Shown piece after piece: positions 53,690 to 58,182 of a stretch of 64,000 nucleotides of DNA; within the stretch, counting starts at the first letter, position 1, and each line of letters opens with the position of its first letter. The position numbers were made by a program, and so were the translations under genes. The DNA comes from Candidatus Heimdallarchaeum endolithica (lineage in GTDB: Archaea; Asgardarchaeota; Heimdallarchaeia; Heimdallarchaeales; Heimdallarchaeaceae), in assembly GCA_021513715.1 (NCBI GenBank), contig CP084167.1, forward strand, positions 256,001-320,000, given 5' to 3'. The notes under the pieces were generated by a model. That model ran no database searches. It worked only from the letters and a program-made list of their open reading frames with translations, and was not told where the DNA came from.

Positions 53690-55369
53690 TCATATTTTAC
53701 CTGTTTTATCCCATGTATCAAATTGCTTTTGGAGTTTTTCCAGAGTTTCATCTATTTTTTCATGACTCGTTGTACTAAACACAATATATTCTCTATCTAC
53801 AGTTATAGCATACTCTTCAGGAAGCTGATATAACCAGTTTAAAAAAGCGTCTTCATCTGGAAAACCTAATAACGAAGATAACTTCTCTATAGCTATACTC
53901 TTTGTACGTTTTATTACTTTTTGAAGTCCTTGTAATCGTAACCTCTCTCACTTTAGTTCAAGCATTTCTTGCTTTCGTTCCAGCCTTTTTATAGTCTGAA
54001 TATTAGCTAGAACAGTGTCAAAATACTTATTTAAATCAGTTTGTAACCTCTCTTGCTCTTATTTTAGCTCTGTTTCTTTTTCCTCAATAAATAATTTCTT
54101 AACTTTATCTTCAGTTAAAACGTCCAACTGACTTTTTTCAATAAGTTCTTTTAATGGAGATAAATTTATCTCTTTTAAATGATTTTTAGACAAATCCAAT
54201 ATAGTTAGATTTGTACAGTTTCCCAATGGCTTTAAATCTATCTCTTGTAATTTATTTTCAGACAAATCCAATGCTGTTAGATTTGGACAGCGTGATAAGG
54301 AAGATAAATCAATAGATCGTAAATCATTACTAGACAATTGCAATTCTGTTAGATTTGTACAGTTTGCTAATGGGGTTAGATCTATTGATTGTAAATGATT
54401 GTCCCTTAAAATCAATCCTTTTAGTTTTGTACAGTGTGATAAGGGAGATAAATCAATAGATCGTAAATCATTGCTAGACAAATCCAACCCTTTTAGTTTT
54501 GTACAGTGTGATAAAGGAGATAAATCAATAGACTCTAAATAATTGCTTTCTAAATAATTGCTAGATAAAAGAAACCATTCTAGATTTATACAGTGTGATA
54601 AGGGAGATAAATCAATAGATCGTAAATCATTGTCAGACAAATCCAACCCTTCTAGATTTGCACAGTGTGATAAGGGAGATAAATCAATAGATCGTAAATC
54701 ATTGCTAGACAATTGCAATTCTGTTAGATTTATACAGTGTGATAAGGAAGATAAATCAATAGACTCTAAATGATTGTCCCTTAAAACTAACCCTTTTAGT
54801 TTTGTACAGTGTGATAAGGAAGATAAATCAATAGACTCTAAATGATTGTCAGACAAATACATTTTTCTTAGATTTGCACAGTGTGATAAGGGAGATAAAT
54901 CAACAAATTGTAAATAATTGTTAGACAAATCCAATGCTGTTAGATTTGGACAGTGTGATAAGGAAGATAAATCAATAGATTCTAAATGATTACCAGACAA
55001 AGACAATTTAGTTAGTTTTGGACAGTGTGATAAGGAAGATAAATCAATAAATTGTAAATAATTGTTAGACAAATCCAATGCTGTTAGATTTGGACAGTGT
55101 GATAACGGGGATAGATCTATCTCTTGTAATTTATTTCCATCCAAAGAAAACCATTCTAGATTTACACAGTGTGATAAGGAAGATAAATCAATAGATTCTA
55201 AATAATTACCAGACAAAGACAATTTAGTTAGTTTTGTACAGTTTACTAAGGGAGATAAATCAATAGATCGTAAACCAGTGCCAGACAAATACAATTCTTT
55301 TTCTTCTGTATCTATTTCTTTAATAAATGTTTTACCGTTAACATTTTTTCCTCTTATTTTTATTTTCAT
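53690..55369 (-). pseudogene. LRR protein A (16 LRRs); open ORF 54059..55369, C-terminal domain cut off by two in-frame stops
   Basis: 22-aa LRRs; TAA at 54059-54061 (CAA in the paralog) and TGA at 53948-53950; the frame then continues to ..DTWDKTGKI* at 53690. Confidence 0.85.
54170..55300 (-). repeat. 66-bp coding tandem repeat array (LRR-A)
   Basis: Recurring cagtgtgataaggg/aagataaatcaataga at 66-bp period. Confidence 0.9.
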
Positions 55370-55443
55370 TGTTAGTAGTTTTATTACTTTTTTATTTTAA
55401 ATATTTTTATTTTATTTAAAGAATTGTATAATCTACGCACGTT

Positions 55444-56293
55444 TGTATACTCCACGCACGTTGGTAAGAAATAAATAGGAAGTGGGTTATGTGGATAAGT
55501 AATAAAACATGAATAAACCCGAACGTAACCTAGAGACTAAGAAAGATTGTGGTTAAAAAAGCTTTGGAAGGAAAAAGGAGAAGATAAAAGAAGTAGCTCA
55601 CAGGTTTATGGTGTATAGGAAGCTTAGATATAAATGGATGGAAAAAGTTAAATTAAAAACTTGAATAAGAATAAGGAAAGGTAGATCTTCCAGACTAAAA
55701 TATACAAAAAAAGTAGATGAAGTGTTAAAAGGAGGATAAGGGAGCTAAGGGTAAAACAAGAAATGAACGTGGAGAAGAAAATAGCTTAACTATTGAAGAA
55801 AGAAGGAAAAAACATTATCCTGAAATGCAATAACTAAAGTAATAGACGAATTAGGTTTTCTTCTGTTAAGTAATAAGAAAAAGAGAAACAGGACTCGATA
55901 CAAGAGATTTGAGCGCTTATCTCCTAACGAACTCTGGTAGTTAGATGGGAAAGGATAATTCTGGGTAGAAGAAAAAGGATAGATTATATCGACTCCTCAT
56001 AACTCTCTTAGATGATCACTCACGATTCTGTCTAGGAGCTAAATCCACCTTAATCTGTATTTTAATATTGGCACAAATATTAATGGTGTTAGTGATCACT
56101 CACGATTCTGTCTAGGAGCTAAATCCACCCCTTTACACCGAAAAAAGAACAGATAATAAGTTTTCTAGAAGAAACAATAGAGAAATATATACAGCTTGAG
56201 TCTATCCTCACAAACAATGGAGCACTCTTCTCCACCGTTAGAGGAACTAGATTCAATTTTTCAAACATATGTTGCTTTTCTTGGAGAATAACA
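55444..56293 (+). mobile_element. Decayed IS481-like element (copy 2)
   Basis: Colinear with copy 1, with the same ends and the same W*LDG stop, plus an 80-bp duplication/insertion. Confidence 0.8.
56013..56129. repeat. 37-bp perfect direct repeat flanking a 43-bp insert
   Basis: tgatcactcacgattctgtctaggagctaaatccacc at 56013-56049 and 56093-56129; single diverged copy in IS copy 1. Confidence 0.9.
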
Positions 56294-56334
56294 AAAAAAA
56301 AGTAAGAGTTGTTCTTCTTTGATTCTTGAAGTGT

Positions 56335-58182
56335 TCATATTTTACCTGTTTTATCCCATGTATCAAATTGCTTTTGGAGTTTTTCCAGAGTTTCATCTAT
56401 TTTTTCATGACTCGTTGTACTAAACACAATATATTCTCTATCTACAGTTATAGCATACTCTTCAGGAAGCTGATATAACCAGTTTAAAAAAGCGTCTTCA
56501 TCTGGAAAACCTAATAACGAAGATAACTTCTCTATAGCTATACTCTTTGTACGTTTTATTATTTTTTGAAGTGTTTGTAACCTCTCTTGCTCTTGTTTCA
56601 GCCCTGTTTCTTTTTCCTCAACAAATAATCTCTTAACTTCATCATCAGTGAAAACTTCCAACTGACTTTTTTCAATAAGTTCTTTTAATGGAGATAAATT
56701 TATCTCTTCTAACTGATTATTCCTTAAATCTAATTTTACTAGATTTACACATTTTGCTAATGGGGTTAGATCTATTGATCGTAACTGATTGTTCTTTAAA
56801 TCCAATTCTGTTAGATTTACACATTTTGCTAAAGGGGATAAATCGATCGATTGTAGCTGATTGAGAGACAATGACAATTTTGTTAGTTTTGTACAATGTG
56901 ATAAGGGAGATAAATCAATAGACTCTAAATGATTGATAATCAAAGACAATCCTGTTAGATTTGCACATTTTGCTAAGGGTGATAAATCAATAGATCGTAA
57001 ATGATTGCCAGACAAAGACAATTCTGTTAGATTTGCACATTTTGCTAAGGGTGATAAATCAATAGACTCTAAATGATTGTAAGACAAAGACAATTCTGTT
57101 AGATTTACACATTTTGCTAAGGGTGATAAATCAATAGACTCTAAATAATTGTAAGACAAAGACAATTTTTTTTCTTTTGTATCTATTTCTTTAATAAATG
57201 TATTACCGTTATCCGTTTTTCCTATTATCAGTATTGATCTCTCTTGCCCTAGTTTCAGCTCTGTTTTATTTTCCTCAATAAATAATATCTTAACTTTATC
57301 ATCAGTTAAAACGTCTAACTGACTTTCAATAAGTTCTTTTAAAGGAAATAAATTTATTTCTTCTAAATAGTTGTCCCTTAAATCCAACCATTCTAGATTT
57401 ATACAGTTTGACAAGGGAGATAAATCAATAGACTCTAAATCATTGCCAGACAAATCCAACCCTTCTAGATTTATACAGTTTGACAAGGGAGATAAATCAA
57501 TAGACTCTAAATGATTGCTAGACAAATACAATTCTATTAGATTTGTACAGTTTGACAAGGGAGATAAATCAATAGACTCTAAATGATTGCTAGACAAAGA
57601 CAACCCTTCAAGATTTGTACAATGTAATAAGGGAGATAAATCAATAGACTCTAAATGATTGCCAGACATATCCAATTTAGTTAGATTTGCACAATGTGAT
57701 AAGGGAGATAAATTAATAGACTCTAAATGATTGCCAGACAAAGACAATTCTGTTAGATTTGCACAATGTGATAAGGGAGATAAATCAATAGATCGTAAAT
57801 CATTTCCAGCTAAAAACAATTCTGTTAGATTTACACATTTTGCTAAGGGAGATAAATCAATAGATCGTAAATCATTGCTAGACAAAAACAATCCTGTTAG
57901 TTTTGTACAGTTTACTAAGGGAGATAAATCAATAGACTCTAAATGATTGAAAGCCAAAGACAATTCTGTTAGATTTATACAATGTGATAAGGGAGATAAA
58001 TCAATAGATTCTAAATCATTTTCAGTCAAATCCAATTCTGTTAGATTTATACAGTTTACTAAGGGAGATAAATCAATAGATCGTAAATCATTGTAAGACA
58101 AATCCAATTCTTTTTCTTCTGTATCTATTTCTTTAATAAATGTTTTACCATTATCTTTTTTTCCTCTTATCTGTATTTTCAT
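56335..58182 (-). CDS. LRR protein B: two capped LRR solenoids (11+7 repeats) plus a C-terminal winged-helix/PCI-like domain
   Basis: N-cap NG[K/N]TFIKEIDT and C-cap PLKELIE..D.VK.LF.EE each occur twice. The fold call for the tail is inference. Confidence 0.9.
   Translation of the reverse strand: MKIQIRGKKDNGKTFIKEIDTEEKELDLSYNDLRSIDLSPLVNCINLTELDLTENDLESIDLSPLSHCINLTELSLAFNHLESIDLSPLVNCTKLTGLFLSSNDLRSIDLSPLAKCVNLTELFLAGNDLRSIDLSPLSHCANLTELSLSGNHLESINLSPLSHCANLTKLDMSGNHLESIDLSPLLHCTNLEGLSLSSNHLESIDLSPLSNCTNLIELYLSSNHLESIDLSPLSNCINLEGLDLSGNDLESIDLSPLSNCINLEWLDLRDNYLEEINLFPLKELIESQLDVLTDDKVKILFIEENKTELKLGQERSILIIGKTDNGNTFIKEIDTKEKKLSLSYNYLESIDLSPLAKCVNLTELSLSYNHLESIDLSPLAKCANLTELSLSGNHLRSIDLSPLAKCANLTGLSLIINHLESIDLSPLSHCTKLTKLSLSLNQLQSIDLSPLAKCVNLTELDLKNNQLRSIDLTPLAKCVNLVKLDLRNNQLEEINLSPLKELIEKSQLEVFTDDEVKRLFVEEKETGLKQEQERLQTLQKIIKRTKSIAIEKLSSLLGFPDEDAFLNWLYQLPEEYAITVDREYIVFSTTSHEKIDETLEKLQKQFDTWDKTGKI
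56690..58110 (-). repeat. 66-bp coding tandem repeat arrays (LRR-B, two blocks)
   Basis: aaggg[a/t]gataaatcaataga recurs at 66-bp period. Confidence 0.9.

Follow-up and report, generated by a model that had tools for sequence, protein, structure and literature searches.

The DNA analyzed here is a stretch of 64,000 nucleotides, below called the window, from the Asgard archaeon Candidatus Heimdallarchaeum endolithica (positions 256,001 to 320,000 of contig CP084167.1, assembly GCA_021513715.1). It carries a pair of leucine-rich repeat (LRR) genes, A and B, see Table 1. The pair is accessory DNA, lying within an insertion that is bounded by the two ends of an insertion sequence (IS). The genome of the sister species, which we used as the reference for insertions, synteny and orthologues, has an empty site at this place: window positions 50000-52766 and 58797-61000 align contiguously to a single stretch of it, at about 91% identity. 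A 9-bp direct repeat flanks the insertion (52758-52766 and 58797-58805, 8 of 9 positions identical), and its termini are imperfect inverted repeats of roughly 17 nt. These ends match intact 761-bp IS copies elsewhere in the genome, which encode a 232-aa rve-like transposase; in the LRR insertion the middle of the rve-type transposase has been swapped for cargo. The cargo is a tandem duplication of a degenerate 735-bp element plus an LRR gene. A MITE-like repeat (MITE, miniature inverted-repeat transposable element) immediately upstream of B belongs to it as well, as does one more fragment of a repeat. The duplicated flanks of A and B are 90-95% identical, and upstream of the genes the two loci are homologous over 55411-55513 (A) and 58340-58442 (B).

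Table 1. Features of the LRR locus, with positions given in the window.
Feature	Position	Strand	Description and evidence
Insertion, 6,030 bp	52767..58796	.	Absent in the sister-species genome; carries both LRR genes; nested with IS/MITE remnants
Degenerate element copy 1, ~735 bp	52868..53600	+	Downstream of gene A; transposase-like fragments; blastn against the genome, direct repeats D4, D5 and D7 against copy 2
Severed gene A tail	53690..54058	-	In frame behind TAA (54059-54061) and TGA (53948-53950); same predicted winged-helix (PCI-like) tail as B
LRR gene A, 436 aa	54059..55369	-	N-cap, 15 full 24-residue units (~54179-55273), C-cap; open reading frame (ORF), Pfam
15-nt tandem slip (NYLES twice)	54530..54562	-	Between units A10 and A11; Tandem Repeats Finder (TRF) period 15, 1.9 copies, 100% match
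Degenerate element copy 2	55444..56245	+	Downstream of gene B; makes up, with the LRR gene, the unit that is duplicated in tandem
LRR gene B, 615 aa	56335..58182	-	Two capped solenoids fused head-to-tail, plus tail; ORF, Pfam LRR_4 1e-54
Gene B tail	~56338-56592	-	Long helix, then ~85-aa predicted winged-helix tail
Gene B module 2	~56713-57144	-	6 units
Gene B module 1	~57367-58086	-	10 units
MITE-like repeat, ~110-145 bp	58208..58352	.	Sits right upstream of the B start codon, with no counterpart upstream of A; blastn against the genome

The protein encoded by A begins with a cap in the form of a beta-hairpin, and its repeats match the Pfam families LRR_8 (1.6e-70) and LRR_4 (2.5e-48). A is shortened by a TAA at a codon where B has Gln, a change from CAA to TAA, and a second in-frame stop, TGA, follows 37 codons further on; both stops come after the same ELK motif of a duplicated segment. 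In the AlphaFold2 (AF2) model of B, which has a mean pLDDT of 77.5, each unit forms one beta-strand (positions 17-22) and one short helix (positions 7-11). Foldseek matches this model to internalin A, a Chlorobium Roco LRR and SHOC2 at E-values of 1e-12 to 1e-17, with InlJ also among the matches. Tandem 24-residue motif units, together with a curved alpha/beta solenoid that has a parallel beta-sheet on its concave face, place the proteins in the LRR superfamily by Pfam, AF2 and Foldseek alike. The structural neighbors of the B tail (TM 0.5-0.66) are winged-helix domains: the CSN8/PSMD8/eIF3K family (CSN8_PSD8_EIF3K) and SAC3_GANP, and also HTH_24, DeoR and HemN_C. For this tail there is no match in Pfam, no sequence homologue in a search of proteins of nearly the same length and no feature-based match in the Atlas. 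Neither LRR protein has a hydrophobic N-terminus, and because of this both are probably cytoplasmic. Against PADLOC-DB neither A nor B matches a defense family at E<=0.001.

The repeat unit is 72 bp long, or 24 amino acids. TRF gives periods of 72, 144 and 216 and never 66, and an anchor motif recurs every 24 residues, so the cassettes of 66 bp described in a previous sequence-only reading of this DNA have to be replaced by units of 72 bp. The number of 34 repeats given there is correct as a count of anchors: 16 are found in A and 18 in B; 31 of them belong to full units, and the other 3 to degenerate C-caps in which the Cys is missing. The full unit reads L-x-S-I-D-L-S-P-L-x-x-C-x-N-L-x-x-L-x-L-x-x-N-x. 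We set its register by the canonical LxxLxLxxNxL, in which L15, L18, L20 and N23 are core and 16, 17, 19, 21, 22 and 24 are the x positions of the concave face, as the sequence-only reading had assumed.

The scaffold of the unit is nearly frozen in its DNA, not only in its residues. Among the 31 full units L1 is encoded by TTA in 30, D5 by GAT in 30, L15 by CTA in 30 and C12 by TGT in all, which bears out the claim of a segment L[E/R]SIDLS[P/S]L..C almost fixed at the nucleotide level. The codon chosen is specific to the position: CTA (L15) makes up 16% of the Leu codons in the genome as a whole and TTG (L18) 13%, while P8 is mostly CCC, at 10%. Units with the same residue share its codon at a frequency of 0.6-1.0, where 0.25-0.66 would be expected from genome codon usage; since this is more than codon bias alone explains, the units share a recent ancestry or have been homogenized. 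Further, the window holds 26 occurrences of a 21-nt scaffold motif (at most 3 mismatches), where 0.01 would be expected, and every one of them is in A or B. C12 is invariant across the full units, which forms a cysteine ladder.

Variation is distributed very unevenly over the unit. The core positions have entropies of about 0-0.5 bits and the six concave x positions of 1.66-2.85 bits; at positions 17, 19 and 21-22 the residues are indeed those given in the sequence-only reading. A hypervariable concave face is thus only part of the picture: the variation does peak at the x positions of the beta-strand, but the convex positions vary too, with entropies of 2.25 (position 13), 1.62 (11), 1.56 (10) and 1.49 bits (2). 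The mean distance between pairs of units is 15-17 of 72 nt in the arrays of A and B; eleven arrays taken from related genomes, and likewise the conserved paralogues within this genome, have 30-39. The A and B arrays are therefore exceptionally young relative to the rest of the family.

Exchange among the repeat units is well supported, as had been proposed from the sequence. Three quarters (75%) of the informative site pairs are incompatible, and nearby sites are more compatible than distant ones (permutation P<0.0005, both for nucleotides and for whole codons). The significant associations fall into four short blocks within the unit, at positions 2-8, 10-14, 16-18 and 20-22, and they include linked synonymous markers, for example TTA at L20 traveling with AGG at R21. 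Single units show the same mosaic structure. A03 and A05 differ at none of 36 nucleotides in codons 13-24 and at 9 of 36 in codons 1-12, and the breakpoint coincides with the edge of a 144-bp tandem duplication of two units. The recurrence of half-cassettes joined to different neighbors is also real: TKLKGL or INLEW is combined with LRDN or LSSN in all four ways, and several nucleotides define each state. The duplication of NYLES, likewise reported before, gives an anchor spacing of 29 residues where 24 is usual.

On a larger scale, how similar two units i and j are is correlated with how similar their successors i+1 and j+1 are (Spearman 0.28). The nearest neighbor of a unit lies in the same gene for 24.75 of 31 units, against 15 expected (P 0.0008), and units of A and B that are in register are closer to each other than those out of register (12.8 versus 15.4 nt, P 0.025). 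The units thus group mostly by gene yet keep their positional orthology. An interleaving of A and B units in a tree had been suggested as a sign of exchange; we rejected it as proof, because positional orthology after a gene duplication yields the same picture. Conversion between the two loci is shown directly by a tract of 227 nt in the tail, which is 100% identical between the stranded remnant of A (53690-53916) and B (56335-56561), while the noncoding DNA beside it is 5-10% diverged, about 7% where it is adjacent. The tract is thus a very recent conversion.

To describe selection we used three classes of positions (concave x, convex x and core), set beforehand from the LRR consensus. Over all pairs of units the ratio of nonsynonymous to synonymous differences per site (pN/pS) is 1.61 at concave x, 0.96 at convex x and 0.07 at core positions. 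For 15 independent nearest-neighbor pairs the corresponding values are 2.59 (binomial P 0.006), 1.94 (P 0.04) and 0.13, and they are unchanged after the site counts are re-weighted for AT bias and transitions. When A is compared in register with the first module of B, pN/pS is 2.10 at concave x (P 0.046), 1.34 at convex x, 0.16 in the core and 0.94 in the N-cap. The pS of this comparison, 0.11-0.18, is similar to the divergence of 5-10% of the duplicated noncoding flanks, whereas a concave pN of 0.24-0.375 is 2-4 times the divergence of these flanks (0.05-0.10). Judged by pN versus pS and by flank divergence, the exposed positions have therefore changed 2-4 times faster than neutral proxies, and the core is constrained. 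The hydrophobic core positions are under purifying selection, and the pattern at the exposed positions is suggestive of diversifying selection.

It should be noted that several points weigh against such selection, so that the earlier proposal of it stands only in part: concave positions do have a pN/pS of 2.1-2.6, but the excess is modest and its P-values only nominally significant. The binomial P-values assume independent changes, and conversion brings in several differences at once. The convex x positions share the elevation, which means that the signal does not single out the binding face, and the excess is inseparable from a reassortment of older unit variants. Further, the tail of A is lost and dead mobile elements occur throughout the locus, so part of the signal could reflect relaxed constraint on decaying genes, and short-read correction could blur fine differences inside the 72-bp repeats. 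The arrays of relatives, in which we sought further pairs for strengthening the pN/pS values, are old and contain no unit pairs within 8 nt.

The LRR family of A and B matches at least five further regions of the genome. Two are conserved paralogues (genome positions 1330792-1331970, a gene of 392 aa, and 2480988-2481797) with colinear orthologues in the sister species. Between the species they have a pS of 0.4-0.55, and their nonsynonymous to synonymous ratio (omega) is 0.04 at concave, 0.24 at convex and 0.04 at core positions. The concave face is thereby marked as functional, since it is the most protected exposed surface in the settled members of the family. A third paralogue, of 312 aa (genome positions 789332-789862; L021:1199-2135), is conserved in both species and consists of an N-cap, about six LRR units and a tail of the B type; the layout of cap, LRR and tail recurs among conserved genes of the genus. 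In the databases the closest relatives, at best 45% identical, are annotated as 'leucine-rich repeat domain-containing proteins' of Thor-, Loki- and Promethearchaeota and have the same type of unit.

Two loci independent of A and B, F1900 and C654, show the same pattern as these genes. Like A and B, the two remaining young arrays of the genome are located in DNA which the sister genome lacks. Strain-specific inserted DNA is thus where every young array is found, and the binding face is frozen in the conserved paralogues of the chromosome. One of the young arrays, F1900, is part of a 6.8-kb insertion between secY and rplO, the gene of ribosomal protein L15 (genome positions 1898984-1905820; L023:4985-11820). 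The seven units of its LRR gene are nearly identical, with differences almost confined to positions 17, 19 and 22. The insertion duplicates the first 84 codons of secY, its 5' end, and looks like an integrative element that targets this end of the gene; three further ORFs in it (1118, 213 and 109 aa) have no match in Pfam or PADLOC. The other young array is a fragment in a stretch without a match in the sister genome.

Taken together, we consider it probable that A and B are tandemly duplicated cytoplasmic LRR binding proteins of a widespread Asgard family, whose young arrays are reshaped by ordinary inherited recombination. The recent amplification of the units started from a single 72-bp ancestor or a few of them, which is why even their codon choice is still shared. 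The 144-bp block duplication, the 15-nt slip, the unit numbers of 15, 10 and 6 and the joining of two modules into one gene are products of unequal crossing-over out of register or of slippage. Gene conversion also acted, inside each locus and from one to the other, and together these processes made the mosaic units. The pattern at the x positions probably represents the burst that new repeats are expected to show after duplication, in which relaxed constraint was combined with some positive selection on the binding surface. The concave face is predicted to bind a partner, and the full-length form may dock through its winged-helix tail.

The main alternative is that A and B are dying accessory genes, with x positions that vary under relaxed constraint (omega about 1) and are reshuffled by recombination, without any diversifying selection. 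It finds its arguments in the nonsense codon of A with its stranded tail, in the dead IS and MITE copies nested in the locus, in a related fragment elsewhere in the genome that is broken, and in the weaknesses of the selection signal given above, that is, a pN/pS above 1 at convex x positions as well, marginal significance and non-independent changes. Neutral decay is difficult to reconcile with a core pN/pS of 0.13-0.16, with frames of 1.3 and 1.8 kb that have stayed open and in perfect 72-bp register in a genome of 30% GC, or with a concave pN that exceeds flank divergence as much as it does here, and we regard it as unlikely. Part of the fine-scale mosaic might also be an artefact of assembly or polishing, with short reads mis-mapped among near-identical 72-bp units. 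For the 3.32-Mbp genome Canu was indeed run on Nanopore reads, and Illumina reads of 100-150 bp served to correct the assembly (PMC8813620). However, both frames are intact and free of frameshifts, the linked synonymous markers and the structure of multi-unit blocks are coherent, and the same pattern is seen at F1900 and C654, which makes such an artefact very improbable.

A programmed diversification within the cell, by copy choice similar to that of variable lymphocyte receptors (VLRs) or pilE/pilS, with A or fragments as donor for B, or by mutagenic retrohoming, is in our judgment extremely improbable. Two homologous arrays only 1 kb apart, one of them truncated, with mosaic units and clear conversion between the loci, are what such a system might look like. 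A comparison with silent cassettes of the pilE/pilS and vlsE type gives a mixed picture: inter-locus conversion is seen, but in A the start codon and the caps are retained, the upstream region is common to A and B, and there are two copies only. Each of the genes is a complete open frame with a start codon and with caps at both ends, and the scaffold motif is found nowhere in the window outside A and B. A reverse transcriptase (RVT_1) was sought across the genome without a match, and a diversity-generating retroelement is rejected on this basis; APOBEC_N (PF08210) was likewise without a match in the genome, a single contig with 92.6% completeness by markers, in a search that did not extend to other deaminase families. 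Further, the synonymous divergence of 0.1-0.18 between the copies corresponds to an evolutionary and not a somatic timescale, and those paralogues that have orthologues are inherited stably between species. The analogy with VLR assembly that had been drawn from the sequence is thus not upheld; unequal recombination and conversion, both inherited, are enough to explain all features of these tandem arrays.

Because the young arrays are associated with mobile DNA, a role in conflicts between host and element is possible. A and B would then belong to a conflict module carried by mobile elements, either a candidate sensor or adaptor that recognizes proteins of an invader or the host with its concave face and docks to a PCI-type complex, or a binder that acts in counter-defense. 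We think this rather doubtful.

The two arrays have known counterparts. In lamprey and hagfish the VLR gene of the germline is incomplete; somatic assembly fills it with partial cassettes, hundreds of which flank it, and involves a deaminase of the AID/APOBEC type. A and B resemble the VLRs in being capped LRR solenoids whose scaffold is conserved and whose concave face varies, but the incomplete germline gene, the banks of donor cassettes and the deaminase are VLR features not seen here. In the LRR clusters of plant resistance genes, of the nucleotide-binding LRR (NLR) and Cf type, tandem paralogues exchange sequence, unequal crossing-over alters the number of repeats, and there is an excess of nonsynonymous changes at the solvent-exposed residues of xxLxLxx. 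Tandem paralogues, exchange, changes in repeat number and a nonsynonymous excess at exposed residues are all found in A and B as well. In contrast to the plant genes, A and B have no NB-ARC or kinase domain; they are stand-alone capped solenoids with a winged-helix tail, in an archaeon, and only two genes are involved.

Among structures, the internalins of Listeria (PDB 3bz5, 1o6v) are the best matches, and one invariant Cys per repeat is shared with the cysteine ladder of InlJ. The internalins differ in having units of 21-22 residues, a signal peptide, an inter-repeat immunoglobulin-like domain and wall anchors, none of which is seen in A or B. The LRR proteins of Thor-, Loki- and Promethearchaeota share with A and B the IDLSPL..C unit of 24 residues and the beta-hairpin cap at the N-terminus, and they too lack a signal peptide. 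Their units are mostly old and diverged, unlike those of A and B, and most have a different C-terminal domain of about 250 aa. In general, Asgard archaea are unusually rich in LRR solenoids of unassigned function (bioRxiv 10.64898/2026.10.28.762692). In the same genus an internalin-like LRR gene has been described on HeimM2, a mobile element targeted by CRISPR, and intragenic tandem repeats were noted too (PMC8813620). The F1900 insertion was considered as a candidate for this published element and rejected: it lies between secY and rplO, with no rRNA or tRNA beside it.

According to Persi, Wolf and Koonin (2016; PMC5120217) fresh protein repeats diverge fast, under relaxed and positive selection, and each unit is then conserved between species. 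The contrast between young, fast arrays and old, frozen ones corresponds to this biphasic regime: the young arrays of A and B have a pN/pS above 1 at x positions, and the old paralogues have a concave omega of 0.04. That study was a general survey, whereas the present case is a single archaeal LRR locus on a mobile insertion. What is new is therefore modest, namely the archaeal setting on a mobile element, while the kind of system is well known, and the locus reveals no new mechanism of diversification. Its value lies in the contrast within one genus, where the strain-specific mobile copies are young, recombining and fast at exposed residues, and the conserved copies keep their concave face under strong purifying selection. 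This contrast marks the concave face as the working surface and points to the copies that are suited for a search for ligands.

The repeats that surround the two genes are common in the genome. By blastn the degenerate element of about 735 bp has more than 25 genomic copies at about 80% identity, and the MITE-like repeat has more than 20 at 91-100%, which indicates that the latter has been active recently; in its place upstream of B it may influence the expression of this gene. An intact copy of the 761-bp IS is found at genome positions 780109-780869 (L027:210-970). There are at least six such copies in the genome, and by its size and layout alone the element is IS6-like. Archaeal pilin and IF-2B domains are encoded in the vicinity of the LRR pair. 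At a distance of 2 kb from the insertion there is a serine-recombinase gene with a Resolvase domain (60728-61561), which the sister genome has conserved in part, and a gene for a small Ras/Roc/Arf-like GTPase (63443-63961) is found at the end of the window.

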